NCBI GenBank assembly: GCA_001767855.1
Contig: MEMF01000002.1
Coordinates: forward strand, 369,493-433,492
From: Alphaproteobacteria bacterium RIFCSPHIGHO2_01_FULL_41_14
GTDB taxonomy: Bacteria; Pseudomonadota; Alphaproteobacteria; UBA7879; UBA5542
Direction of reading: 5' to 3'
DNA length: 64,000 nt
How positions within the stretch are numbered: position 1 is the first letter of the stretch; each line of letters begins with the position of its first letter. Positions 21,544-44,979 of the stretch are shown one piece after another. The notes under the pieces were generated by a model. It did no database searches, was not told the DNA's origin, and saw only the letters and a list, made by a program, of their open reading frames with translations. Made by a program: the position numbers and the translations under genes.

Positions 21544-22740
21544 ATGTTGAACTGGAAAACGTTGATGGGATGGAGAAAAGAGAAACCCTCTGCGAAAGAC
21601 CTCGCGTGGGTGCAGGGAGGCCGACCCATGGGGGCCTCGCGCACCTACACTCGATTGGCAGAGGAAGGGTACGAGCGCAATGTGATTGTTTACAGATGCA
21701 TCAACCTCATTGCCAAAAATTTGGCCATGCCTCCTTGGATTTTATACGAGGGAGATCGCGAGGTAGAGCGGCACGTTTTGGCGGACCTCATAGAAAACCC
21801 CAACCCCTTGCAAACGCGCACCACGTTTCTAGAATCTCTGGCCAGTTATTTGCTGCTCGACGGCAATGTGTATGTGCAAGCTGTGGGGGAGGAAGGTGTC
21901 CCTCGTGAGCTTTTTCTTTTAAGGCCCGATCGGGTGCAGATTATGGCGGGGGACGGTACTCTGCCGCGGGGATATGTGTATCAGGTGGAAGGCAAAAAAT
22001 CCTATTACCCGGTAGATCCCGAGACGGGGGCATGTGCCATTCTGCACCTCAAGTTATTCCATCCCAGCAATGATTGGTATGGCCTGAGCCCCATTCAGGC
22101 GGCAGCGGCAGCTATTGATCAACATAATGCGGTGGGGAGTCATAATCTTTCTTTGCTGCGCAATGGGGGACGACCTTCTGGTGCCTTGGTGATGCCAGGG
22201 AATGAGGGTTTGACGGATGAACAACGGATGCAGCTCAAAGAAACGGTGCGAAATCTCTATCAAGGCTCCGAGAATAGCGGGCAGATTTTGGTGCTGGAAG
22301 GCGGCATGAAATGGTGCGAGATGGGCCTCACCCCCAAGGACTTGGATTTCATGGCGGGCAAACATATTTCCACCCGCGAAATTGCCCAGGCCTTTGGGGT
22401 GCCCTCCATGTTGGTGGGGGTGCCGGGAGATAGTACGTTTTCGAACTATCGTGAGGCTCGATTTCATTTGTGGGAAGACACCGTCTTGCCCCTCCTCCAC
22501 ATGGTGATGGAGGAAATGAACCGGTGGATTGTGCCGGCGTACGGTGAGCAGTTAGCCTTTGCTTATGATGCAGATCAGATTCCCGCTTTGGGATGCCGGC
22601 GTGAACGGCTGTGGAACCGTATTCAAGATGCCACCTTCTTAACGGTGAATGAGAAGCGATCTGCCCTGGGGTATTCGCCCCTTCTAGACGGAAACAATTT
22701 AGAAAACATAGAAAGGAAACACAATGATTCAACAAGATAA
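21544..22740 (+). CDS. Phage portal protein, HK97 family (GTA g3-like)
   Basis: 398 aa. Motifs typical of HK97-family portals: NPLQTRTTFLESL...LLDGNVYV, LSPIQAAAAAIDQHNA, GRPSGAL, REARFHLWEDTVLPL. Immediately followed by protease and capsid genes. Confidence 0.88.
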   Translation: MLNWKTLMGWRKEKPSAKDLAWVQGGRPMGASRTYTRLAEEGYERNVIVYRCINLIAKNLAMPPWILYEGDREVERHVLADLIENPNPLQTRTTFLESLASYLLLDGNVYVQAVGEEGVPRELFLLRPDRVQIMAGDGTLPRGYVYQVEGKKSYYPVDPETGACAILHLKLFHPSNDWYGLSPIQAAAAAIDQHNAVGSHNLSLLRNGGRPSGALVMPGNEGLTDEQRMQLKETVRNLYQGSENSGQILVLEGGMKWCEMGLTPKDLDFMAGKHISTREIAQAFGVPSMLVGVPGDSTFSNYREARFHLWEDTVLPLLHMVMEEMNRWIVPAYGEQLAFAYDADQIPALGCRRERLWNRIQDATFLTVNEKRSALGYSPLLDGNNLENIERKHNDSTR

Positions 22741-28532: not shown

Positions 28533-28602
28533 GATGTAAGAAAGACTGGATCCCCGTCTTCACGGGGATGACAAAGATACGGGGATGACAAAGATACGGG
28601 GA
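28533..28602. repeat. Hairpin repeat family D (inverted copy of 16703..16738) followed by a 17-bp tandem duplication
   Basis: gatgtaagaaagactggatccccgtcttcacgggga is the reverse complement, with a few mismatches, of ttcccgcggagacgggaatcaagtctttcttacatc. It is followed by tgacaaagatacgggga x2. Confidence 0.75.
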
Positions 28603-28686
28603 TGGCGAAGAAGTGCAGTCATCTCCGCGGGGGAGACAGGAAGAAAGAAGCATTCAAATTTTCGACAACAGACAAGGGAGACTTTC

Positions 28687-30384
28687 ATGACATTTTATTT
28701 TGCGTGGGTGAACACCCCAGAAATCTTTGATGCTGGTCGGCACGCACGGATGGACGAATCCATTTTGCACTTCGAGGTTGATCACCAAGAGGGCGCCGTG
28801 CCCTTGTTGCGGCTCACGGTGGCCCTTGCGATCCACACCCCCCAAAGGCAAGGCCAACGGGGGATTTTGTGGCAGCAAGACGAGGCAGGCCATGCACATC
28901 TTTTATTTGATGGCATTTTAGTGATGACCCCAGCGGAAAAAAGGGAAGATTTCTTGTTGTTGGTACTCGAGGCGGGGAGGGCTGACAAGCCGTCCCAATT
29001 GGAACGGCTGTTGAGCACAAAAAAACAACAGGAATTTGAACCTTTATTGGTGGCGGAAGAAGATCAAGAGGCGGTGGAGGAAGTGTTAGAATCTCTCTCT
29101 GCCGTGCCCCATTGGGATCGCCTAACGGGCGACGTTATACTCACGGAATTAGGTCAACATCGAGAGACGGTGGATCTCGGCCCCACCTTTTTTGCGGAGA
29201 GTCTTCAGATGCACCAGGGAGGACGACCTCTGGCGGCGGTGCGGTTTTCTCTGACGGCCGAGTGGGTGCAGAGGTATGATGGCGTGGTGGACTTGGGCCC
29301 CCTTATTCAACAGGCTGGTACGCGCGGATACCTCAGCAGCCTTACCCCTGACGATTTGCAAAAACGATGGTGGCGCAAGGTGTATCCCCTGCTGCGGACG
29401 GGTTATGAGATTTTGGAAAGTCGCCTCACGGTGGTGGTGCCCCCCGAGACGGGTGGGCTCGAGGTGTATCCCCTAAAAAGCGCTGCCTTTACGGTGCGGG
29501 GACGTGTCCAAACCTTGGCGCGTAGCTGGCTGCAGCCGGTTTTGACACTCCAGTGGCATTACCGGCAAAAACGCAAAGAAACGGTACACATAGAGGTGCC
29601 CTGTGGAAAAACGGGTGACGTGTTAGAGTTGTCTGTGCGGTTGCAGGATATCTGTGGTGCTCAGCCCATCGCCTCCTGGAAACCTCATCAAGTGTATCCT
29701 ATCAAAACTTTGGTGCGGCATGAGGACACAGTGTATCGGGCCATCAAAGTTCATGTAAGTGACACTACTTTTCAGACAGAATTCTGGGAGGTACAAGGGA
29801 CGTGGCCCACTGCGCTCGAGGACCCCAGCCGCTGGAGTTTTTTCGAGACAGAGCGGGGGCGCGCCGTGATTCATCATGTGATGCGGCGGGCAGAGGCTTA
29901 TGGGGTCATGGCGGCGAGAGAGCTGGAGGTGCGGTGTCATCTTCCCTTTGCCGCGGGTCGGCTGTTACGCGGGAATCAACAGGTCCGGCTCACGGATCCA
30001 CGGTTGCCAGGGGGATCGGTGACGGGAGATGTGCTTCACTATCGGCTGGTGGCAGAGGGGGATACGGGCGAGCGCTGGGCTGAGGTGACCCTTGGGGTGA
30101 CGATGCATCTAATGCGAGCGTGGAAACTGAAAGGATTGCAATCCCTCAAGAAGGCGGAAGGCATTCTAGATCCCCGGGCTGTGACCGCGGCAGATCTAGT
30201 CACTTCTCTGCAGCTGACCGGTGGGGCGGAGACGCAAAACCAACGCCTGGAGAGAAGAGATTTTCCCAGCTTGATGGCCGCCCATCGAGCCTTGGACAAA
30301 ATTCCGACGCGATTGAGGATCGAGCTGAAGGATCTCAAAAGTGCAGAAGAGTTGAGTCATGAATGGGCAGCGGAGATTCTGTGA
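28687..30384 (+). CDS. GC-rich phage-like protein (566 aa), possible tail or host-recognition component
   Basis: GGGAG RBS before ATG 28687. Composition matches the GTA block. Contains the segment ASWKPHQVYPIKTLVRHEDTVYRAIKVHVSDTTFQTEFWEV (29671..29793), which resembles the CBM5/12-like W..Y..G..V..Y.A...H......W motif common in phage fibre or baseplate proteins. Confidence 0.5.
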   Translation: MTFYFAWVNTPEIFDAGRHARMDESILHFEVDHQEGAVPLLRLTVALAIHTPQRQGQRGILWQQDEAGHAHLLFDGILVMTPAEKREDFLLLVLEAGRADKPSQLERLLSTKKQQEFEPLLVAEEDQEAVEEVLESLSAVPHWDRLTGDVILTELGQHRETVDLGPTFFAESLQMHQGGRPLAAVRFSLTAEWVQRYDGVVDLGPLIQQAGTRGYLSSLTPDDLQKRWWRKVYPLLRTGYEILESRLTVVVPPETGGLEVYPLKSAAFTVRGRVQTLARSWLQPVLTLQWHYRQKRKETVHIEVPCGKTGDVLELSVRLQDICGAQPIASWKPHQVYPIKTLVRHEDTVYRAIKVHVSDTTFQTEFWEVQGTWPTALEDPSRWSFFETERGRAVIHHVMRRAEAYGVMAARELEVRCHLPFAAGRLLRGNQQVRLTDPRLPGGSVTGDVLHYRLVAEGDTGERWAEVTLGVTMHLMRAWKLKGLQSLKKAEGILDPRAVTAADLVTSLQLTGGAETQNQRLERRDFPSLMAAHRALDKIPTRLRIELKDLKSAEELSHEWAAEIL

Positions 30385-33120: not shown

Positions 33121-34029
33121 ATGAAATCTTACAGAGAGAAACCGTATCATCCTGGATATGTAGCCCCCCTCACGGGAGAGGCTTTTACGCGCCGCGCCGT
33201 GCTCGAAATGGAAGAAGAGGGGTTTGCCCAGGGGCATGACGTTCAGATTTTAGAGGCGCCCCCGCACCTCACGTTACGGCTCGACATGCGTCTGCATTTT
33301 TACGAGGGGGCGGTCCCTTTAGAGCGGGGGGTGAATGGGAAATCAGCAGGGATCACACCGCTCTATCAACCGGGGAATGTGCTTTCTGACGGGTCAGAGA
33401 ATCTCAAGCCCTTATGCAAGGTGCGGGCGGTGGATTTTGTGTATCTGCAGCGGGGGATGTATGTAGACGTCGAAGAGGTGAATCGACCTTTTTACGAAGG
33501 GCACGGAGTGGCAGCGCTCATCCAGTTGGTACTGGGTCAAGTGGTGTTCCAAAAGCCCTTTGCAGGACGGGCTGATGCGCTGCGTTTGGAGACCCATCTC
33601 AGGCGGCAGGATCGGGATGAATGGACGGAGGTCATCGGTTTTGGGCGTGAAACCTACCCCCTCTATCCCTATGGCGGGTATGCCCCTCCCCACGGTGACG
33701 TGCGGGAGGTGGAGCAGGTGTATGCCTTCGCGGGGGTGGACCGCAGCGACGGGCAGATGGTGACGGCCTTGAAGCTCTATCGAAGCTCTTTTTTCCACAC
33801 CAGTGGGGGATTTCCGCCCACTCCTTTTACGTATGATCATAAAAAGTGGGTTTTCCCCCAAGGCGTGTTGCCCCTTGAACAGATGACGGTGGGGCAGGCT
33901 CTCAGCGAGGGGCATCTGACCTTTACGCTGAAGGAGGCGTCTGGGGAGGTACAGACGTATGCCTCCTATGGGTATGAGCAGGTGGGGGGGTCTATGAGCC
34001 AAATTAACGTACATTGCCAACCTCAATGA
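33121..34029 (+). CDS. GC-rich hypothetical protein (302 aa); the 3' end abuts an IS remnant
   Basis: Long ORF with the GTA-block composition and no recognisable motif. Its final codons run into the transposase-fragment frame. Confidence 0.45.
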
Positions 34030-34119
34030 TCTTTCCCAAACGCTGGGCCCCCGCCTACGAGAGGGCGACATGGGATGAGATTTTAAACTGTCTTCATCGC
34101 CCATCTTTCGTATTTGCAG

Positions 34120-34520
34120 GGAGTCTATTGATAGAGATCTATGGAAAACCTAATGTGATTGTAAGTGACAATGGAACCGAACTTACGAGTAAGGCTGTTT
34201 TAGAGTGGGCAACAAAGCATCGTATAGAGTGGCACTATATCACCCCTGGAAAACCTTCTGAGAATGGCTTTACAGAAAGCCTCAATGGAAAAATACGGGA
34301 TGAGTGTCTCAACGAACATTGGTTCCAAACCCTCCAACAAGCCAAGGATATTATCCATGACTGGAGGCAAGATTATAACTACGTCAGACCACATTCCAGC
34401 CTAGGCTACAAAACACCTATAGAATTTATAGGAGTCCCCAATGGAGAAAAGAGAGAAGATTTTTGTTCATTGATTCCAGTTCACAAACCGGCTATAAAAG
34501 CCTCAGGACTCTACTTCTAA
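34120..34520 (+). mobile_element. IS3-family (IS407/IS2-like) transposase fragment: C-terminal part of the rve/DDE domain only
   Basis: [92 protein letters not shown]. The HTH and the first two DDE acidic residues are missing upstream. Confidence 0.8.
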
Positions 34521-34920
34521 ATGGACCATACTTTGGGAGCAGGCCAGCGGCCATCCGTGAGGTAACCTTTGTCCCCATTCCCTTGACTGCTGCTCGACCA
34601 GGCTGATAGAGGTAGCTTACCACCTCTGCTCCATCCATCAGGTTCTCAGCTGCAACGCCAGATACTCCGGCTGCGCGTAATACGCGCCGGACATACTCCT
34701 TCGTGTAGAGTCATCGCAGTCTCTACTGTCTCCAGCATTCCCTGCGCAGGAAGCCCCCTCGCTATACTGTCAACCAAAAGGGCCTGTCTCGGATTCTGCT
34801 TCTTCCATACCTGTATCTCTTCTGCCAGGGCCTGGTTACAGCTGCAGCCTTACCCTTCACTTGGTTTATGTATGGTTTTAACCTATCCAAACCAATTATG
34901 TTCGTCTAGATCCTCTCAAT

Positions 34921-35475
34921 TTATGATAATCTTGATTTGTTGTAATGAGCTTCGATGATGTCGTCATAAAACCAAGGTGACTCATAATACAGTCGCCAAA
35001 TAAATCTTTCGAAGGAATCTTCTATTTTTATATGACTAGGAGTCCATACTGCATTAGGGTCATGAGAAGCTGGTCTCATAATAAGAAACCTCGAAGAATC
35101 CCCAATTTCAAAAAAAGGCAGATCCCCAGGTTCAAGCATTTCGAGAGTAGCATTACTCATCCAATGATCCTCGCATTCTGCAGGCCCTTCTATAGTTTCT
35201 GTTCTAAATCGAATAATTTCTTTTGAAAAATGAGCCACCACCAAGGGAGGAAGAATTTCGTTATTATTATAAAATTCGTATCCCGCCGGAGGAATCTCAG
35301 GGGAACGTAACATTCCAAAACCAATTTCCTGATAAAAAGATCTTAATTGAGATGGAAAATTAACTCCCAATTTTTGTTCTGCAGTCACAATTTCTTCAGA
35401 TTTTAGTGGCAAGAACCAATTGTCGTTAACTTCACTGCCTCCAGGAATAAATTGTTTTAAATATTCGTAAGTCAT
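34921..35475 (-). CDS. SMI1/KNR4 (SUKH-1) family immunity protein
   Basis: Typical opening ...EEIVTAEQKLGVNFPSQLRSFYQEIGFG. 184 aa. The start codon overlaps the toxin stop (ATAATG at 35475). Confidence 0.85.
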   Translation of the reverse strand: MTYEYLKQFIPGGSEVNDNWFLPLKSEEIVTAEQKLGVNFPSQLRSFYQEIGFGMLRSPEIPPAGYEFYNNNEILPPLVVAHFSKEIIRFRTETIEGPAECEDHWMSNATLEMLEPGDLPFFEIGDSSRFLIMRPASHDPNAVWTPSHIKIEDSFERFIWRLYYESPWFYDDIIEAHYNKSRLS

Positions 35476-38400
35476 TATTGTTTCGTTTCTAACAACCTAT
35501 TTAAAGGGGACCCTGTCCCATGAATGCCACCTTGGTGTTGGGCTCCAAAAGAAACTGGTTTCATATTCCACCAAACGTGTGGCCCTCCTACCTCTTGAGG
35601 AATAATATGATGCGCATCAACTCGTGTTTTTTTTAACTCTCCTCTGATATTGCGCATCTGAAATGGCCACACTTGCCCCGTATGATGTTCCCATTCACTG
35701 ATGAGATTCTGCCTTGTAGCTTTCGTAAAAGAATCAGAATGCAGCTGCTTTTCCATAGGTGTCAACTTTTCAAACTTACCCGTTCTCATGGCAGTTGCCA
35801 ATTCTTTTTTTTGCAGTTCGGTAAATTTAAACCCAGATCGGGCTTCCATGTCTCGGATATACTCTACCGCACCCCCTGCCCATTTTGTATCAACGGGTTT
35901 GGTTTTTCTAACTTCCCCCACCAACACCTCAGCCCTTGCCCCGGTCGATTCTGCCATTACAGTAGAACGTGCAGCACCCGAGGTATTAGCCACCATTTTT
36001 GGACGAACAACAGAACGAGAGATGTCGAACAGTTTCATGGATTCATCAGCGCTAGCAACAAATCCTCCTATACCTTTTAAAACCTTTGCTGCTCCTTTCA
36101 CAAGGGGACCGCCTACCAAAAAGGCTCTGCCTATCTGATCCAAAAAACTTTGCGGCAAGCGTTGCTCAGCAGGGGTGTTGACGCCGAACAGCGTAAATGC
36201 TCCCAATACCGCTTCGCTTTCAGCGATGTTTTGGGCTGTTTGTTGTATCATAAACAGTTCCGACGAATCCCTTGATGTTACAAATGATTCTAGGGTCGCA
36301 TGATATGTTCTCTCATTCTGTGCCTGTATGTCTGAGATCACTTCTTTAAAATCACTTACAGGACCGAGGTCTCCCCGACGAAAGCCCCTTCCTATGGCTT
36401 TCACTATCCAGATATCAGACTCTTCTATTCCATCGAGAAGGCTACTTGCTTTCTGCCCAGCTTTCTCTAACACCTGCTTATATACTTCCCCAGTACTCAG
36501 TATCCCTTGGTCCTCATCCTGCTGCTCTTGAGCTATCAACTCCATGGTTTGTAGGAAATTTTCATCAATTGCTGTCGTCCCTGTATGAACTGCAGTGCCC
36601 ACCCCCCCTTGGCCGGTGGCAAGCGCAGCGATCCCCGCCATTATCTTAGCCGTGTTGGCATTTCTTTGAATCTCTTCCTGAGTCGATGTTGTTGTCGTGA
36701 GCCCTTCTGCAACCATTTCTGCAACAGCCGCTCCAATCGCTCCGGCCAGCGCGCCACGTCCTATATGCTTCGGATCCAGAATGGCCCCCGCCGCAGCGCC
36801 CACGGCCGCATGCAGAATCTTGTGGGTTGTTCCATCTAAGGACTCTACAGAACCGGTTGCCTCTTTGGGTTGGTTTGCAGCCCTTGCTTTTCCTAATTGG
36901 TTAGCCGCATACCCTTGCACAACATTTGCAACCATAAGCCGTGCTGCTTGGCTTAGATCAGGTGCTTCTTGGTTGACAAGGGCTGTTACAGCTGTTTGGG
37001 TGCCTGTCGTAAACACCGCTCTCGCTGCATGCTGAGCTGGCGTCATATCAGCCCCTTTCAGCGTGATACCTAAGGTGGGCGCTAGTTTGTTCACAACCCC
37101 AGCTGTAGCCGCTGCAGCGATAACCGTCTTGAGGCTTTCCACCGAAGCGAGGCTTCGACAAGTTGCTTGTAGGTCTCCTCCTGTTTGGAGAAAGGTGACA
37201 GCCGCCGTGGAACAAAGAGTGCTGAAGGCTGCATTCCCCATAACGGCTAAGATACCACTCCCGGCACCCCCTGTCGCAACGGACACAGCAAGCGCAACAA
37301 TGATGGCACCCTCCTGCCCAATACCGGTAGAAAATCTTTTGGTATGCACCCAAGAGGTTAATTGACGTGTCCTCTCTTCCGGGTCGATCCCGCTGATTAA
37401 CGTTGCATACTTATCCCAGTCCACGTTTGTAAATTGAGCCGGCACATGAATAGATTCCCATTCTTTTACGTCTACACTGGACCGATGTTCTACCTCCTGA
37501 CCTGCTTCCGTTCTCGTTCCCATCGTTCCAAAGAAGCCGCTCTGGCTCGATTCACTTCGTGTGAGCATCACCTCCACCGTGGGGCGTACGGTCATCCCTT
37601 GGGTGGTCATATCCGTGAGTTTATCTCCACGAATCGTCGTTCCTTCAAAGTCAGCGGTCTTTGTGTCCACCTGGATCGTTTTTCCTTCAACATGCGTGTC
37701 TAAAAATTGAGGCATCTCTGTAGTACTTTTTTGCTCTGCCCCACCAAACGATGTGGCTTGTGTCATGGTTGAGGTGTGTTTGTTATGACGTGCCTTCGCC
37801 CCCGTCTTGAGCGTTTCCCCTTTGAAGATGAGCTCCCTTTCTGGCGCTCGTACAATCCCTTCTGCTGTAATCACCTGACTCAACAGCTTTAAGCTTCCTT
37901 CCAGACTTCCCATCTCAGGGGTGCTAAAGGCCGTTTGATAGAGTTCGTCCTCTGTCGCCTTGGCTGAGAAAGCCGATTGTTTTACTCGACATGTGTGGTT
38001 TTGTCGATATTCCTTAGACGCGTATTCTTGCTTGATCTCATACTCGGCCTCAACAATGTTGTCTCTCACCGTGAGATAATAACTTCCATGGTTCTCAAAA
38101 ATTTTGGCCTTGATATGTCCTTTCTTACTTCCAAACACAAGCGTCTGCACATAAGTGGGGAGAATCACTTCTTGGCCCAAGTCGTTAAGAATTTTTTCTT
38201 GAAGATCTAACGTATTGAGCAAAACCCGCCACCCATTAAGAGTCACATCGCCCCCAATGAGATTCATGCCTGTTAAGAGAATATCTTTATCTGACTCAAA
38301 CGCCACACTCCCGTCCTGCCCTGATCCTGCAATTGCTAGAAGACCAGGCCGACGTATTGTATGATGATGGGTCGTCTCTTGTATCTTGGACGAACTCGAT

Positions 38401-41400
38401 AAGAATCCTCCTTCTGCCGAAGCGCTCCTTTCTTTCGTTGAAACATCTTCTTCATATGTATGGGAAGAAGAATGAACCCCGTCTTTTCCACGAACTTTAA
38501 ATTTCTTTTTTCCAATGTTGACACCATCTAGAATAACTTTACCCTCTGTATCAATGACATACTCTTTCTCTGCAATATTAGCGCCATCCGGACGATTTAA
38601 ATCCGGATGAAGGGTTCCTTTCTTCAAATGAAGGACGGGCACCAAACATTTTTTCTCATTAATAATTTTTGGAACGAAATATAACCCCTCATCCACTTCC
38701 TCAGGAGTAATGACCAGAATCTCTCTATAATAAGTTTCAGACTCTAGGTCGGGCTCTCCCCCACTTTCCTGAGGAAGATAGACAAAGTTTTTTCGAGCAA
38801 CTGTTGAGGGATTTTTTTGTAACGCAGCATCATACGCAGCTTTTCCTGCATCTGCCACTTGTTTCATGGAAGGGATATATCCCGTATTCATTTTTCTATG
38901 AAGAAGTCTGGTCATCAGCCCCTGAATGTCTTCAGGAGGCAAAAGCATTTTGTAAGACTCAAGGTCTTCCACTTTTTCAGCCCCCTCTATAACAACCATG
39001 GGGATCTTTTCCTTAAAATTTCTTTTCAAACTCGTTTGTAAAATATAAGGAGATTCTTCTGGAGCAGTTACATACATCTGACGATCAAACCCATGCGTTT
39101 CTTCAGGAAGTATCTCCATAAATTCTGGAAGTTCCTTAACTTCTGGGAGTTTAATGTTCCCTTGATATCCCGTTGTAACAGCCCCCGTGGCCTGAACGTT
39201 GATGGTATCACTCACCATATTCCCCGAAAGGTCCGCTTCGCCTATGCCTGTGACACCAACTTTTTCTGCCGAACTCATGACGGCATGAACAACCCCCCTT
39301 GTCCCCGCTTCAGGATAGTCCCGCCGCCAATACGTATAGGATTTACTTTTACTCCCTATTCCAAAGGTCGAATGCTTTTCCACAGAAACATCAACCCCTG
39401 TCTTCGTAAGGGTTTGGATATGGGTTTTTACATAATTTTGGTTCACAACCTTTGTTGCAAAATCAATACCAACCTCACTCCTGGCCCCCTGATCATCCGC
39501 TTCAAAGGTGTTTAGGAACTTTCTCTTTTGTTCTTCTGGGATCCCCTCAATCTCAATCCCCCCTGGCGCATACAAAAAGCTTGCGGCATTCAACGCATAA
39601 ACTATATCTCTGAGTTTTAATTTTCCTTTTCCTATATTGAATTCCGCCGGATCTGTGTTGGCATAATCTATCTGCCAATACCGATGGGAGACGATGCTTG
39701 TATCAATAATGCCCAACATATTTAAAAAGTAGGGAACTCTCCATTTAAACTCTTCTGGTTGCGTCCCTATATGAAAGGCTCCTCCAAAGTTGAGGAATAA
39801 ATTTAAATTTTCTACACTGACACCCTTTTGAACCTGTACTAACCCCAAGGTGCTGAGGAACTTCCCCTCTCGAATGCCTTCGATAAAAAGTTGTCCTCCT
39901 ACATTCAAATAACAATTAGGTTGAGACTTATAAAAATGATGTTTCCAATCAAACTTGTCTCGTCGAACATCTCCCTCTGTCAGGATCTCTGTTTCTTCGT
40001 CTCCGATCGCCCAACCCATTTGGATATGGGGAGAGACCAACTCTGTATCTCCCGCAGACTCCATTCCTCCATAATTAAAAATCTGCTTTGTTCCAACCAA
40101 AGTGAGTTTCTCCGCCCCGAATATTGATTCGGGAGGCTTTTCTTTGCTAGAGAAACGAAAATCCAAGTCCTCAAACACTTGGGATAAGAACTCGTCTTCT
40201 TTTGCATGTTTCAAATATGGAAAAGGAAAGCAATTATCCTCTCTTCTATCTTCCACATCGAGATTGGCCTCGTTGATGATTGTTTTAGCCTTTATTGTAA
40301 GTTTTTTCTTCGTCTTAAGAATACTGCTATTATAAAATTCAAGCCCCTGGAGGTTCAAACTGTAGGGAAGGTCTTCTAGAGGGGTGTTATTCTGAATAAC
40401 ACCTCCATAGGTGATGAATAAGGATTCACAGTTTAAATCAATTAGGTGGCTTTTATAACCCAATATTTCTTCTAAAGTTCTCGATTTTTGGCTAGCTGTT
40501 TCGTGGAATTCTAAAATAGGAGCTGTTAATATTCCTCTCAAAAAAGACGGTAAATTTTCAACGCCTTCAAAAGATATTTTTTCCTCAGACTCAATTGTGC
40601 CCCCAGCATCAATATCGTGTTGAGATAACGTACGACTTTTTAATCCTCTAAGTTCTTTAAACTCAATTTTTTGTTTAGCTTTTATCTGTCCTCTTCCATT
40701 CGCGAGATGAAGTTCTGTTTCATTGAGAGATAGCTGATCTTTTGCCGTTATTTTTCCTCGAATGTTTGAAATCTTCCGCATCTTTTTTAGATCAATATTT
40801 CCTTCTGAAAATATCTTTCCTTCCGTATTATCAAGTGTTTTCCCTCCCATCTTTATTTGATGAGTGGACTCTACCCGTCCCCTCGCGGTGCTAATGAGAT
40901 CTTGAGCTTCTAGTATAACCTCGGGTCCAGCAATAACGCCGCCGTCATTATTAAAGATATTTCCCTGTAGGCTTGCAAGATGCGTGCTGGTTTTAGATTT
41001 AATTGTAGACTCATCATGGTTTAAGATCCGACTTTGGGCTTCTAAAGAAACTCTGCCTTCAGGACTTTCAATTTTTGAACAATCCCCATTCACTATGTCC
41101 CCGTTTGTCTTAGTCTCCACTAACGTTTCTCCAACAACGGAAGATCCTTCTGAATTAATAAAGTTTCCTAATAATTCATCTATTGCAGGCGCTGTTTTAT
41201 CCCCACCCTCTTTCTCTTTTGTTGAGTTTGATGACGCCTCCGCAAACCGTTTGGCATGAGACTGGCTATATCTATCAAAACTAGAATCTTTATTGCTGAG
41301 AATGGGTGTGGTGGACTCTCCGATTTGAATTCTAACCGTTCCACCAGAAATAAGGGCGACGATAGCATTAGAAATCCCTTCAGAGACTCTCATATCTAAA

Positions 41401-42566
41401 GTTTGCTCCGACCTTATCTTAGAATGAGTGTTGTACACTCTTGTCGCTCTGGCAGAAAGCGTCTTAGACATAAGGAGAGACCCTTCTTTATTGTTAAGAA
41501 TTCTTATGTTGAGGTCCATTTCATTCTGGCTTAAAATAGCCCCTCCGATGTTGTCAAGGGTTCTAAGAGGCGCATTTATAAGTAAGTCCCCCAAGGAGAA
41601 GAGACGGCCATGATGATTTAGAAGAGGATTCTGACTCGCCACTGAAAGATTTATAGAAAAATCTTTTGTACTTCCAATAGAGGAACTTAAATTATCAAAA
41701 TCTTTTACATTAAAAATAAGAGCCCCTTCTCCTCTGAATGTACTGTGGTTCCCCGCTCTATAAACATCCCCCGTGTAACTAAAAGGATTCTCTACATGGA
41801 AATAAGATTGATCTAAGAAAAACTTTTTAGAGGTCACCTGAGCCGTGGCAGAAAAGATACGACTCTCCCTCAACCCAAACTTTTCTGCGATGACTTCTAA
41901 CAGAGTGGACGTAATGAGGCTTTTAAAATTAAGAGAAACAGACGGCGCCCTCAACGTTGTGTGAAGCCCTTCGATGGATCCTCCTTCAAATTTAATGAAG
42001 GCCGCACTACGAAGATCTAGACGATTTCCTCTAAAAAGGTTGCTTCCCCAAATACCACTATCCGCTACAACAGAAGCTTCCTCCCCAAAAGAGAATAGAC
42101 CTATATTTTCATAAGTTTTACTATTCAAAAAGATGTTGCTACAAGAGTTGATATTATAGGTTGTCAGACCTCCTAGAGTTACAAAAGAAAGACCTTTGGA
42201 TCCTTCAAGAGAAAAAATCTTTGCGTTTCCTTCGCTGTCTACAAAAAAGTCGATTTTTAATCCGTTACTCCACCCTAAATACCGTTGGTTGAGACCCTTC
42301 TTAAGGAAAATGCGTTTCCCTTCTTGGACAGAGATAGCTTTTTTCTTCTCTCCCTCTCGTCCATAAACTTCTAAATTTTGAAGACCTAAAATTGAAAGGG
42401 AGTTTTTTTTGTCAATCCCTATTTTAACAGGACCATTATATAAAATTGAAGAATAGGCTTTCGTATTATCTGGTTCATCAAAAACAAAGGCAGAGCCGAA
42501 TGCCTCCCAAAATAATAAAAGAAGACTAACAATTAACCATCTCCGCCCAAATAGGTTTTTCCTCAT
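35475..42566 (-). CDS. FhaB/CdiA-like polymorphic toxin (2363 aa) with a DUF637-like region, a VENN-like boundary (IDENF) and a C-terminal AHH (HNH/EndoVII) nuclease
   Basis: Signal peptide MRKNLFGRRWLIVSLLLLFWEAFGSA, then about 1700 aa of beta-helical, Gly/Asn/Ser-rich repeats. A DUF637-like segment follows: FLQTGGDLQATCRSLASVESLKTVIAAAATAGV. TAIDENFL lies at 36552..36569. The C-terminus reads KKTRVDAHHIIPQEVGG...GGIHG (AHH at 35607..35615). Confidence 0.85.
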   Translation of the reverse strand: MRKNLFGRRWLIVSLLLLFWEAFGSAFVFDEPDNTKAYSSILYNGPVKIGIDKKNSLSILGLQNLEVYGREGEKKKAISVQEGKRIFLKKGLNQRYLGWSNGLKIDFFVDSEGNAKIFSLEGSKGLSFVTLGGLTTYNINSCSNIFLNSKTYENIGLFSFGEEASVVADSGIWGSNLFRGNRLDLRSAAFIKFEGGSIEGLHTTLRAPSVSLNFKSLITSTLLEVIAEKFGLRESRIFSATAQVTSKKFFLDQSYFHVENPFSYTGDVYRAGNHSTFRGEGALIFNVKDFDNLSSSIGSTKDFSINLSVASQNPLLNHHGRLFSLGDLLINAPLRTLDNIGGAILSQNEMDLNIRILNNKEGSLLMSKTLSARATRVYNTHSKIRSEQTLDMRVSEGISNAIVALISGGTVRIQIGESTTPILSNKDSSFDRYSQSHAKRFAEASSNSTKEKEGGDKTAPAIDELLGNFINSEGSSVVGETLVETKTNGDIVNGDCSKIESPEGRVSLEAQSRILNHDESTIKSKTSTHLASLQGNIFNNDGGVIAGPEVILEAQDLISTARGRVESTHQIKMGGKTLDNTEGKIFSEGNIDLKKMRKISNIRGKITAKDQLSLNETELHLANGRGQIKAKQKIEFKELRGLKSRTLSQHDIDAGGTIESEEKISFEGVENLPSFLRGILTAPILEFHETASQKSRTLEEILGYKSHLIDLNCESLFITYGGVIQNNTPLEDLPYSLNLQGLEFYNSSILKTKKKLTIKAKTIINEANLDVEDRREDNCFPFPYLKHAKEDEFLSQVFEDLDFRFSSKEKPPESIFGAEKLTLVGTKQIFNYGGMESAGDTELVSPHIQMGWAIGDEETEILTEGDVRRDKFDWKHHFYKSQPNCYLNVGGQLFIEGIREGKFLSTLGLVQVQKGVSVENLNLFLNFGGAFHIGTQPEEFKWRVPYFLNMLGIIDTSIVSHRYWQIDYANTDPAEFNIGKGKLKLRDIVYALNAASFLYAPGGIEIEGIPEEQKRKFLNTFEADDQGARSEVGIDFATKVVNQNYVKTHIQTLTKTGVDVSVEKHSTFGIGSKSKSYTYWRRDYPEAGTRGVVHAVMSSAEKVGVTGIGEADLSGNMVSDTINVQATGAVTTGYQGNIKLPEVKELPEFMEILPEETHGFDRQMYVTAPEESPYILQTSLKRNFKEKIPMVVIEGAEKVEDLESYKMLLPPEDIQGLMTRLLHRKMNTGYIPSMKQVADAGKAAYDAALQKNPSTVARKNFVYLPQESGGEPDLESETYYREILVITPEEVDEGLYFVPKIINEKKCLVPVLHLKKGTLHPDLNRPDGANIAEKEYVIDTEGKVILDGVNIGKKKFKVRGKDGVHSSSHTYEEDVSTKERSASAEGGFLSSSSKIQETTHHHTIRRPGLLAIAGSGQDGSVAFESDKDILLTGMNLIGGDVTLNGWRVLLNTLDLQEKILNDLGQEVILPTYVQTLVFGSKKGHIKAKIFENHGSYYLTVRDNIVEAEYEIKQEYASKEYRQNHTCRVKQSAFSAKATEDELYQTAFSTPEMGSLEGSLKLLSQVITAEGIVRAPERELIFKGETLKTGAKARHNKHTSTMTQATSFGGAEQKSTTEMPQFLDTHVEGKTIQVDTKTADFEGTTIRGDKLTDMTTQGMTVRPTVEVMLTRSESSQSGFFGTMGTRTEAGQEVEHRSSVDVKEWESIHVPAQFTNVDWDKYATLISGIDPEERTRQLTSWVHTKRFSTGIGQEGAIIVALAVSVATGGAGSGILAVMGNAAFSTLCSTAAVTFLQTGGDLQATCRSLASVESLKTVIAAAATAGVVNKLAPTLGITLKGADMTPAQHAARAVFTTGTQTAVTALVNQEAPDLSQAARLMVANVVQGYAANQLGKARAANQPKEATGSVESLDGTTHKILHAAVGAAAGAILDPKHIGRGALAGAIGAAVAEMVAEGLTTTTSTQEEIQRNANTAKIMAGIAALATGQGGVGTAVHTGTTAIDENFLQTMELIAQEQQDEDQGILSTGEVYKQVLEKAGQKASSLLDGIEESDIWIVKAIGRGFRRGDLGPVSDFKEVISDIQAQNERTYHATLESFVTSRDSSELFMIQQTAQNIAESEAVLGAFTLFGVNTPAEQRLPQSFLDQIGRAFLVGGPLVKGAAKVLKGIGGFVASADESMKLFDISRSVVRPKMVANTSGAARSTVMAESTGARAEVLVGEVRKTKPVDTKWAGGAVEYIRDMEARSGFKFTELQKKELATAMRTGKFEKLTPMEKQLHSDSFTKATRQNLISEWEHHTGQVWPFQMRNIRGELKKTRVDAHHIIPQEVGGPHVWWNMKPVSFGAQHQGGIHGTGSPLNRLLETKQ

Positions 42567-42617: not shown

Positions 42618-43325
42618 TTAAAACAAACCAAGAACTTTTTTCTTTTTTTTCTTCCCCCCTCCGGTAGATTGGGTCTGTGCCTTAGGAGCCTCTTGAGGTG
42701 CGGGAGGCGCTGCTACATAAACCTTTTTCCACTCTTCAAATGGTTTTGGTTCATGAAGTTGCACGCCTGGAGAGACTTCCCAAATATCCTCTGTAGAGGC
42801 AAATTCATATTTTACTCCATTTTCCTCGATGGTTTTCTGACGGTCTTCTTCTGAAGGCTCTACACGGACCCACGGAAAGGATTCTCTTTCCTCCTCCCCA
42901 AAAGGAACCTCTACATTATTCTTCACAAAGAAAGATTTGACGATGAGTCTGGAAAGCTTTCTTTCTGCATCTCTCACCCACTCCCCCGGTCTCATCTTTT
43001 CTTCATATTCTTCTGTAACTGTATTTTTATGTGTTTCCCTATCTCCCAAAAAATTTCTCTCGTGGAATTTTAAGAAAATCTTTCCCCTGTTCTTTTTTGT
43101 ATAAAATGGTTCAGAGTCAATGACACTCCTAGGTGTTAAATCTTCCCGAGCAGATCCATCCAGTGCACTGTTCCCCGAGTCCTCCAAAGGCCTCACTTCC
43201 CACTGAGGCGCCGCTGATAAAGCATGGGCATAATGCCCCCCGTCATATTCCAAAGCACTTGTGTACCCCATGAGACCCTGACTTAACACGCTGACTCCCA
43301 ATATAAACTTTCCAATCTTCGTCAT
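42618..43325 (-). CDS. Hypothetical secreted protein encoded directly upstream of the toxin gene
   Basis: RBS GAGGGGAAG. Signal-like N-terminus MTKIGKFILGVSVLSQGLMG. Acidic central region and poly-Lys tail GGGKKKKKKVLGLF. 51-nt gap to the toxin start. Confidence 0.55.
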   Translation of the reverse strand: MTKIGKFILGVSVLSQGLMGYTSALEYDGGHYAHALSAAPQWEVRPLEDSGNSALDGSAREDLTPRSVIDSEPFYTKKNRGKIFLKFHERNFLGDRETHKNTVTEEYEEKMRPGEWVRDAERKLSRLIVKSFFVKNNVEVPFGEEERESFPWVRVEPSEEDRQKTIEENGVKYEFASTEDIWEVSPGVQLHEPKPFEEWKKVYVAAPPAPQEAPKAQTQSTGGGKKKKKKVLGLF

Positions 43326-43527
43326 TCTTCCCCTCAATTTCTTTGCTGATATTTCAATATTTTCAGAAACATACATCAAAAAACCAATAAGAGGTATATC
43401 AATTTATGAATACCTTAAGTTAACTGAGAGTATCTTTTAGCAAACCTAATTTTTTACACCAAAAATCAGCTTTTTTAAGGACCCTCCTTATTGTAGTCCT
43501 AATTTTCCATAGTGTTTTTCTATAATG

Positions 43528-43790
43528 TCCCCAGGCTCAAGCATTTCGAAAGCATCATTACTCATCCAATGATCATCGTGTTTGGTGGGGCCTTCTACAA
43601 TCTCTTCTCTGAATCAAATAATTTCTTTTGAAAAATGCGCCGCCACCAAGGGGGGGAATTTCGTTAACACAATAAAACTTATATTCTTCAGGCATTTTAT
43701 GTGGGACTACCAAGCAACCAGCGCCGATTGTTTGGTAAAAAGATCTCAACTGACACAGTTTAAAGAACTCTCCCTTTAAGAGTTATGGTG
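43528..43790 (-). pseudogene. Decayed orphan copy of the SMI1/KNR4 immunity gene
   Basis: The minus strand reads LVAAHFSKEII*FREEIVEGPTKHDDHWMSNDAFEMLEPGD. The intact gene reads LVVAHFSKEIIRFRTETIEGPAECEDHWMSNATLEMLEPGD. The in-frame TGA is at 43614..43616, and both ends are missing. Confidence 0.8.
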
Positions 43791-43953: not shown

Positions 43954-44979
43954 TTGCAGTATGTAGTGCGTAATCTGCACACTAATTCATTTTCAGAGAC
44001 GCGAAGCAATTATCCCACACCGCTTTGTATGTCTCTAAAACGAAGTTTTATTATAACAGGGTCTAGTAGCCCCGATCTTCTTTCTCAGACGTCAGAAACT
44101 TTGGCGGGAAGAGTTGGGATATTAGAAATAGGAACTCTAAAAGCAAATGAGTATTATCAAAAACCTCTGAGTCCTTTCTATAATTTATTTGCTTCAAAAA
44201 TTTCACCTGAACGCATTCCTTCTGGTTCCCAACCCCTCTCAGGCCAAGAGATAGACTTTATTTGGATGAAGGGGGGGTATCCAGAGCCCTTACTGGCAAA
44301 GAATCCGCTTTTCTATAATCAATGGATGGAAAACTACAGGGATACATATATTAACCGAGATATAGCGAGGCTGTTTCCTTCTCTTAATAAAGTCAATTAT
44401 CGTCGTTTTCTCAGCATTCTTTCTAAATTATCTGGAACGATTCTCAATAAGCGAGACATGGGCCGAGCGCTAGAGGTCAATGAAGGCACGATAAAACAAT
44501 ATCTCCATATCGTGACGGGCACTTTTTTGTGGCGTTCTCTGCCGAGTTTCGAGAAAAATATTATCAAATCAGTTATTAAAATGCCGAAAGGATATATTCG
44601 AGATTCAGGTCTGCTTCATTATCTAACAAAAATAAGCTCCCTTGAAGAATTGAGTGAAAATCCCTTGGTCGGTGCTTCTTTTGAATCTTTCGTTATAGAG
44701 GAGCTTTTGAAAGGATTAGAGTCAACGCTGGTTACAAACTGGCAGCCTTTTTATTATAGGACGAGAAATGGAGCAGAGATTGATCTTATTTTAGAAGGGC
44801 CTTTTGGGGTTTTGCCCATAGAGATTAAATACAGTTCTACCGTGAAGTTGAGACAAATTTCTTCTTTAATCCAGTTCGTAGAAGAACACCAATTTCCCTT
44901 GGGAATCGTTATCAACCATGGCCGATCTATCGAATGGATCCATGATAAGATCGTCCAAATCCCTGTGGGCTGGATTTAA
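43954..44979 (+). pseudogene. DUF4143-containing AAA ATPase (COG1373-like), 5'-truncated
   Basis: Contains ...IITGSSSPDLLSQTSETLAGRVGILEIGTL and a C-terminal DUF4143/PD-(D/E)xK-like region (GAEIDLILEG...LPIEIKYS). It lacks the N-terminal Walker A region expected about 100 aa upstream. The track start is a TTG. Confidence 0.6.

Follow-up and report, generated by a model that had tools for sequence, protein, structure and literature searches.

A probable polymorphic toxin with a predicted Rhs2CT-type nuclease tip and a coupled SUKH-1 gene in a Holosporales genome

The toxin locus

The stretch of DNA analysed here, hereafter the window, covers 64,000 nucleotides (nt) of contig MEMF01000002.1 (assembly GCA_001767855.1, forward-strand positions 369,493 to 433,492) from Alphaproteobacteria bacterium RIFCSPHIGHO2_01_FULL_41_14, an organism that sequence comparison assigns to the Holosporales, an order whose members are known to live inside protists as symbionts; the ribosomal protein S1 of the window falls into one 90% cluster with a protein of a Holosporales bacterium. 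Our subject is a pair of genes on the reverse strand: a large gene that likely encodes a polymorphic toxin and, directly 3' of it, a small gene of the SUKH-1 (SMI1/KNR4) family. The large open reading frame (ORF; 2363 aa, 35475..42566, -) runs without interruption and is preceded by a Shine-Dalgarno sequence, GGAGG, 8 nt 5' of its ATG. The small ORF (184 aa, 34921..35475, -) begins with an ATG that shares 1 nt with the TAA of the toxin ORF (TAATG), confirming the coordinates and the overlap that a preliminary description of the window had given for the pair. Together with an upstream gene they make up a three-gene, operon-like locus (253-aa gene, toxin gene, SUKH-1 gene) with the following features:

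42618..43379 (-): upstream gene starting at a TTG and lying 51 nt 5' of the toxin gene; its 253-aa product has a hydrophobic stretch at the N-terminal end
42486..42566 (-): residues 1-27, predicted to be a Sec signal peptide, with N-termini of a similar kind in the ortholog and in other carriers
40557..42029 (-): FHA-type beta-helix repeat region, residues ~180-670, strongest at ~320-670
37380..40556 (-): middle body, residues ~671-1729, 49-80% identical to the L001 ortholog and otherwise orphan
36729..37241 (-): DUF637 (Pfam PF04830), residues 1776-1946
36552..36680 (-): PT-VENN-type pretoxin segment, residues ~1963-2005, ending TAIDENFL
36552..36569 (-): IDENFL cassette junction, residues 2000-2005
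35880..36551 (-): residues 2006-2229, the largely orphan first part of the variable tip
35478..35879 (-): toxin domain, a predicted atypical HNH deoxyribonuclease (DNase) of Rhs2CT type, residues 2230-2363
35607..35612, 35565..35567, 35535..35537 and 35520..35522: predicted catalytic or metal residues H2319-H2320, N2334, H2344 and H2349, respectively
34921..35475 (-): SUKH-1 (SMI1/KNR4) gene, above the Pfam threshold

Related loci are designated L001 to L009, and related proteins P0002 to P0078, in the numbering of this report. The upstream protein is 52% identical to its positional counterpart (~240 aa) in L001, and is possibly an accessory or export factor; it matches no Pfam family and has no homolog beside the loci of the other carriers. 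Scans for promoters and terminators across the locus gave signals at or near chance level.

The toxin tip and its relatives

Near its C-terminus the toxin carries DAHHIIPQEVGG...GGIHG (DAHHIIP...GGIHG), a stretch that had been described as an AHH nuclease tip. A word-indexed homolog search with the 358-aa tip returned no match, and an exhaustive HMMER search against 1.84 billion representatives returned 457 proteins at E<=1e-3, 276 of them at E<=1e-10. The region common to this family is the last ~134 residues; the domain ends at most 10 residues from the C-terminus in 141 of 149 carriers, and carrier lengths run from about 100 to 3000 aa. Some of them also share the last ~70-110 residues of the N-terminal part of the tip (2006-2229), a part that may act as a linker or entry region. 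Four helices precede the family signature, WE..TGQ.WP...G...(a)HHI...GG..WWN.xP...HQ.G.H, in which H2319, H2320, N2334, H2344 and H2349 are 97-100% conserved over 150 segments and are all present in the window.

The top match of the exhaustive search, P0006, was discarded as a repeat-inflated false positive (36 weak matches, ~3e-4 to 0.1, to tip residues 45-105). One DUF637 carrier, P0014 (1511 aa), has the toxin domain twice in tandem (1208-1332 and 1378-1506), which is unusual for a C-terminal tip.

A PDB sequence search found 8CM0, both from the single sequence (phmmer, E 4.9e-4) and from the family profile (E 1.6e-11). Modelled with AlphaFold2 (AF2) from the family alignment, the tip reached a pLDDT of 91.7 and a pTM of 0.83 (the single-sequence model, at pLDDT 45, was unusable), and a Foldseek search with this model gave 9T38 and 8CM0 as the only strong matches (probability 1.0, root-mean-square deviation 2.2-2.3 Å, ~110 columns), generic HNH domains lying far below them. 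Both entries correspond to Rhs2CT of Serratia marcescens Db10, a proven DNase that is metal-dependent, EDTA-sensitive and free of RNase activity, that has an active site formed by His1368/His1369 on a beta-hairpin and two loop histidines, and that is inactivated by H1369A; it is an EF-Tu-dependent, dual-kingdom toxin, carried into fungal nuclei by the import machinery (bioRxiv 10.1101/2025.10.28.685041). The two toxin domains are homologous (26-27% identity), are C-terminal in their respective polymorphic toxins, and have in common a helical N-terminal part and a beta-hairpin bearing HH, followed by WWN and the distal histidines. His1368/His1369 align with H2319/H2320, and the distal H2344 and H2349 presumably match the loop histidines of Rhs2CT.

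The comparison with Pfam gave a different picture from the earlier family assignment. The window tip had no match to AHH (PF14412) at E<=10 and a weak generic HNH signal at the position of DAHH (E 0.03); among 45 family members, none matched AHH (E<=1), 31 matched generic HNH weakly, 10 matched HNH_5 and one matched LHH. NCBIfam holds no model for the domain. Pfam AHH was consequently rejected as the family of the tip, which sequence and model together indicate to be a predicted DNase of the HNH superfamily and of Rhs2CT type. Of the AHH nuclease tip first described, the HNH-superfamily nuclease and the A-H-H tripeptide stood, and the family did not. A toxin family of 457 representatives, unmodelled in Pfam and NCBIfam, is now linked to a characterised DNase.

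The tips of the Pfam AHH, LHH, WHH and Tox-REHH families resemble that of the window in being HNH/His-Me-finger toxin tips, often accompanied by SUKH genes, and in the case of AHH by sharing the tripeptide, but the window family has its own signature behind four helices and no member matches the AHH model. Tox-REHH/Rehh (bioRxiv 10.64898/2026.09.22.753552) was also considered as the family of the tip and is a parallel only, with another residue set (R46, H52, E53, H102, H121) on another scaffold.

The SUKH-1 partner and the cassette junction

The small ORF passes two Pfam models, SMI1_KNR4 (34.0 vs 25.4 bits) and SUKH_6 (30.9 vs 27 bits), and its start overlaps the toxin stop, in agreement with its first description as a SUKH-1 gene. 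SUKH is an established family of predicted immunity proteins for nuclease toxins (PMC3113570, PMC3482391). All the informative loci sampled have an SMI1_KNR4 gene directly 3' of the toxin gene, either overlapping it or at most 11 nt away. The identities of the toxin domain and of the immunity protein to those of the window are as follows:

L003, carrier P0007: toxin domain 63%, immunity protein 74%
L004, carrier P0012: 46%, 50%
L005, carrier P0019: 47%, 42%
L006/L007, carrier P0045: 42%, 44%
L008, carrier P0034 (Odyssella): 46%, 52%
L009, carrier P0078, an Rhs/YD-shell protein: 42%, 27%

The immunity proteins of the six other loci are all homologous to the window SUKH protein (27-74% identity, E<=3e-11), and the carrier bodies are unrelated to that of the window except for DUF637, which is the sole Pfam family in P0007, P0012 and P0014. 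The toxin domain thus has a dedicated SUKH-1 partner subfamily and behaves with it as a cassette. This partner sets the family apart from Rhs2CT, whose immunity protein, RhsI2, is a novel alpha-helical protein. Because Rhs2CT's own immunity protein does not belong to SUKH, we infer that the SUKH protein neutralises the toxin from gene context and from the co-variation of toxin and immunity identities. At 14518..16944, locus L004 also encodes a protein of 808 aa that contains a U-box, as in eukaryote-like E3 ligases, and that matches dynamin/GTPase families faintly, which suggests that this contig, too, comes from a host-associated bacterium.

The only ortholog of the whole toxin, found in a scan of GTDB genomes, lies in L001, a contig of an uncultured Holosporaceae metagenome-assembled genome. 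The gene order is the same (a ~240-aa upstream gene, a 2267-aa protein and a small downstream ORF). The two large proteins are 41-82% identical up to residue 2005, with 75-82% in the 300 residues leading up to the junction, and identity drops to chance right after ...GTTAI(D/E)(E/N)NFL. The L001 tip is unrelated to that of the window and the downstream proteins of the two loci do not match each other either, although the one in L001 is still SMI1_KNR4 (41 bits). The pretoxin segment of L001, which ends IENNFL, passes Pfam PT-VENN (23.1 vs 20.3 bits), and the corresponding motif in L003 is TAIENNFF. Because L001 is alike up to residue 2005 and then continues into a different tip and a different SUKH gene, IDENFL is a true cassette junction. 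The VENN-like boundary first proposed at 36552..36569 was borne out in this way, the ortholog diverging exactly there, although the window copy fails Pfam PT-VENN. Variability of the tip after IDENF, whose absence from related genomes had been named beforehand as grounds for refuting the toxin claim, was found, on one ortholog; a scan of metagenome contigs with the full-length toxin alignment yielded no further relatives.

The pattern that characterises polymorphic toxins (Zhang et al. 2012; Jamet and Nassif 2015) is seen from both directions, with one body bearing differing tips (L001) and one tip-plus-immunity pair on unrelated bodies (L003-L009). The proposal of a polymorphic toxin and immunity pair, composed of a DUF637/VENN-type pretoxin region, a junction, an HNH tip and a coupled SUKH-1 gene, was upheld. 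Third-position GC is 0.27 in the SUKH gene (34924..35475), 0.39 in the HNH domain and 0.46 in the DUF637/pretoxin region (36552..37316), a contrast, uncorrected for amino-acid composition, that is compatible with a separate origin of the cassette.

Carrier body, export and probable role

In the toxin N-terminus, MRKNLFGRRWLIVSLLLLFWEAFGSAF, a basic n-region gives way to a hydrophobic core (Kyte-Doolittle 2.5), a layout like that of a Sec signal; the signal peptide of the preliminary description was accordingly retained as a prediction from charge and hydrophobicity at residues 1-27. The only Pfam match of the protein is DUF637 (33.3 bits against a cut-off of 26.6), so that the DUF637-like segment, too, was found above threshold (PF04830). 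A database-wide search with the whole toxin returned one identical fragment and a few distant matches, in which residues ~180-670 match Pseudomonas hemagglutinin-repeat proteins (P0002-P0004, with PF05594/PF13332; best E 4e-11) in many registers, as beta-helix FHA repeats do; these Pseudomonas proteins also align to the DUF637 of the toxin. Pfam Fil_haemagg was sub-threshold (E 0.11), as was an NCBIfam/TIGR FHA repeat match, the only one in NCBIfam, and a PDB sequence-profile search with the full-length toxin alignment was empty. Residues 28-180 and ~670-1730 have no detectable relatives save the L001 ortholog. The long beta-helical repeat body that had been described is consequently supported over residues ~180-670, by homology to FHA repeats, and not over the two other segments.

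Similarity to the CdiA/CdiB/CdiI systems of the E. coli and Burkholderia types is extensive: a large Sec-exported protein with FHA-type repeats and DUF637, a VENN-type junction, a variable C-terminal (CT) tip and an immunity gene immediately 3' are all hallmarks of CdiA, and the protein had been described as CdiA/FhaB-like. The locus could accordingly be a canonical contact-dependent inhibition (CDI) system of the type Vb secretion system (T5bSS), whose TPS domain has diverged strongly and whose cdiB lies elsewhere in the genome. However, no Haemagg_act/TPS match (PF05860) was obtained with Pfam on the whole protein, or on the N-terminal 431 aa alone at E<=10; the N-terminal 340 aa had no homolog in an index of 5.8 billion proteins and scored a probability of 0.2 in hhalign against the canonical TPS domain of P0004; and the canonical TPS domain of P0002-P0004 gave no alignment to the toxin N-terminus by local BLAST or two-sequence profile. 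The partner TpsB (CdiB), a transporter of the Omp85 type, is likewise missing from the places searched, with no ShlB/POTRA match in the 64-kb window (Pfam and/or NCBIfam on nearly all large ORFs, including every one of at least 400 aa) and none annotated within 5-6 kb in the six related loci L003-L009. Moreover, the VENN motif is degenerate (IDEN), the partner is SUKH and not a CdiI family, and where CdiA proteins have recognisable receptor-binding or YP domains the toxin has an orphan middle region. Zhang et al. (2012; PMC3482391) classed the signal-peptide-only toxins of Candidatus Odyssella, which are comparable, as generally secreted ('T2SS', for type II secretion system). With no TPS domain and no adjacent TpsB found, membership in CdiA/FhaB (TpsA) is thus not supported, and a canonical CDI system is a tentative possibility, somewhat on the doubtful side; a CdiA-like mode of working may nevertheless apply if TpsB is encoded elsewhere in the genome.

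We consider it likely that the locus encodes a Sec-exported polymorphic toxin of FHA-repeat/DUF637/VENN build that carries an Rhs2CT-type DNase into rival bacteria, the SUKH-1 protein neutralising it in kin. The Sec signal would take the 2363-aa protein across the inner membrane, and the outer membrane would possibly be crossed by means of a remote TpsB. The N-terminal two thirds, with the FHA-type repeats, would form a surface-display or delivery stalk, while DUF637 and the degenerate PT-VENN segment (TAIDENFL) would close the conserved body and act as a recombination junction. The interchangeable tip would be a metal-dependent HNH-type DNase of the Rhs2CT family that degrades target-cell DNA, and the translationally coupled SUKH-1 protein would bind and neutralise it in producer cells and their kin. 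The targets would most likely be competitors with which the bacterium shares a host cell or niche, for instance other strains of Holosporales. Of all this, the sequence analysis shows the domain identities, the cassette junction, the homology to a proven DNase with its catalytic residues kept and the recurrent toxin-SUKH pairing; DNase activity, SUKH protection, outer-membrane export route and targets are proposed.

Several observations weigh against this proposal. With neither a TPS domain nor a TpsB found, the steps of outer-membrane export and delivery are unexplained. The pretoxin segment of the window has no Pfam PT-VENN match, its VENN having degenerated to IDEN. The proven relative Rhs2CT has a non-SUKH immunity protein and is a type VI secretion system (T6SS) effector with a PAAR-Rhs carrier, unlike the Sec-signal/FHA-repeat/DUF637 carrier of the window. 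The locus sits among pseudogenes. Finally, L002, the same locus in an ENA assembly (ERZ4903072), is 99.97% identical and differs by only three transversions within 9 nt (36464..36472, codons 2032-2035), one of which, K2035*, falls 30 codons past the junction and splits the toxin gene into 2034 + 309 aa; this may be an error of assembly, or strains may truly differ close to the recombination junction.

A DNase tip of this type might alternatively be directed at the host, entering the nucleus of the protist as an effector or as part of an addiction module, with the SUKH protein as self-protection before export or as antidote. Rhs2CT is dual-kingdom and enters fungal nuclei, the Holosporales are protist symbionts, eukaryote-like WH2 and leucine-rich repeat (LRR) proteins are encoded nearby, and an addiction role has been proposed for related toxins of Candidatus Bodocaedibacter (PMC8163844). 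Such a role is disfavoured because a coupled, conserved and co-varying immunity gene, together with a relic second allele, is the signature of conflict between bacteria; from immunity genes Zhang et al. (2012) argued likewise for bacterial conflict in Odyssella, and the same cassette is found on Rhs proteins outside this group. We judge a host-directed function unlikely. A more far-reaching proposal is that DUF637/VENN carriers of this kind form an endosymbiont-associated class, Sec-exported and crossing the outer membrane by some route other than TPS/TpsB, whose cross-kingdom DNase would hit protist nuclear DNA upon loss of the symbiont, and with it of antidote or regulation, combining host addiction with interbacterial killing; we hold this to be very unlikely. 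The set of DUF637/VENN carriers lacking the TPS/TpsB export pair in symbiont-like genomes is flagged by this analysis. If the DNase does act on eukaryotic nuclei as Rhs2CT does, the locus would bear on symbiont competition or on enforced retention in protists.

Weaponry against other bacteria had been called unexpected in a genome of host-restricted appearance, which overstated the case. Zhang et al. (2012; PMC3482391) reported full toxin-plus-immunity systems in the endosymbiont Odyssella and took the presence of immunity genes to point to conflict among bacteria, not with the host; in Ca. Bodocaedibacter, Midha et al. (2021; PMC8163844) reported three loci for polymorphic toxins, one of them AHH-tipped, and proposed host addiction; and Verhoeve et al. 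(2022; PMC9111745) found CDI/Rhs-like C-terminal toxin modules in Rickettsia and relatives. The toxin/SUKH pair of the window is itself present in L008, from Ca. Odyssella thessalonicensis L13 (AEWF01000003.1), a Holosporales endosymbiont of Acanthamoeba. The polymorphic toxin systems (PTS) of O. thessalonicensis and Ca. Bodocaedibacter vickermanii (PTS I-III) resemble the window locus in order, lifestyle and the presence of large secreted toxins with nuclease tips and immunity genes. They differ in that their bodies are not homologous beyond DUF637, in that Bodocaedibacter PTS I has a Pfam AHH tip and Imm43 as its immunity protein, and in that orphan modules follow the pair in L008, whereas the window has an upstream immunity relic only. 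These modules (L008 13971..15628) comprise a WHH/Colicin-DNase fragment with a 134-aa ORF, and an LHH fragment with a SUKH_5 protein. Polymorphic toxins are thus already documented in this lineage; new are the link between this toxin family and Rhs2CT and its SUKH partner, in an intact and well-defined addition to the few complete polymorphic toxin-plus-immunity systems of obligate intracellular Holosporales.

Surroundings of the locus

Fragments of other genes border the locus on both sides:

43524..43755 (-): decayed second immunity gene, broken by a frameshift, a stop codon and a deletion inside the gene
34014..34520 (+): rve_3 fragment (Pfam 107.5 bits) of an IS3-type transposase, truncated to the C-terminal half of the enzyme
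43954..44979 (+): DUF4143 ATPase fragment, of which only the end of the AAA_14 domain is kept

The relic at 43524..43755 is 53-69% identical by tblastn to residues 42-119 of the immunity protein and ends IIEKHYGK, as does the L003 immunity protein and unlike the resident one. It is the remnant of a second immunity allele, which hints that the cassette was replaced in the past or that a neighbouring toxin locus has been lost; the window contains no orphan CT fragment. The bracketing of the toxin locus by transposase and DUF4143 ATPase fragments suggests a rearranging island.

Such surroundings raise the question of whether the toxin locus is itself a decaying relic, non-functional and on its way to a pseudogene in a reductive genome: the transposase and ATPase genes that flank it are truncated, the second immunity gene beside it has decayed, and L002 has the premature stop at codon 2035. 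Against this, the 7.1-kb ORF is intact behind a strong ribosome-binding site, the catalytic residues are all kept and the immunity gene is intact and coupled. The L001 ortholog (59% identity) is also intact and almost gapless over 2000 residues, which implies long-term purifying selection. Decay of the locus is accordingly a highly improbable explanation.

Between the SUKH gene and the transposase fragment lies a 400-bp non-coding spacer (34521..34920) with 52.5% GC, compared with 37% in the SUKH gene, and no Rfam match. Elsewhere in the window, a 415-aa protein (10206..11453, -) carries a eukaryotic WH2 actin-binding motif (Pfam 35.2 vs 23.1 bits) and is a candidate effector acting on host actin, as would fit an intracellular lifestyle, and a 519-aa protein (59921..61480, +) carries eight LRR_6 repeats (RNI-type, eukaryote-like; E 2e-54) and is a possible host-interaction effector. 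A same-strand block at 21544..~30400 (+) starts with an HK97-family phage portal gene (TIGR01537, E 1e-62) and includes the GC-richest stretch of the window (0.52-0.54 over ~22-30 kb) as well as a 599-aa ORF (28585..30384) with no family match; it is probably a gene-transfer-agent or prophage-remnant cluster.

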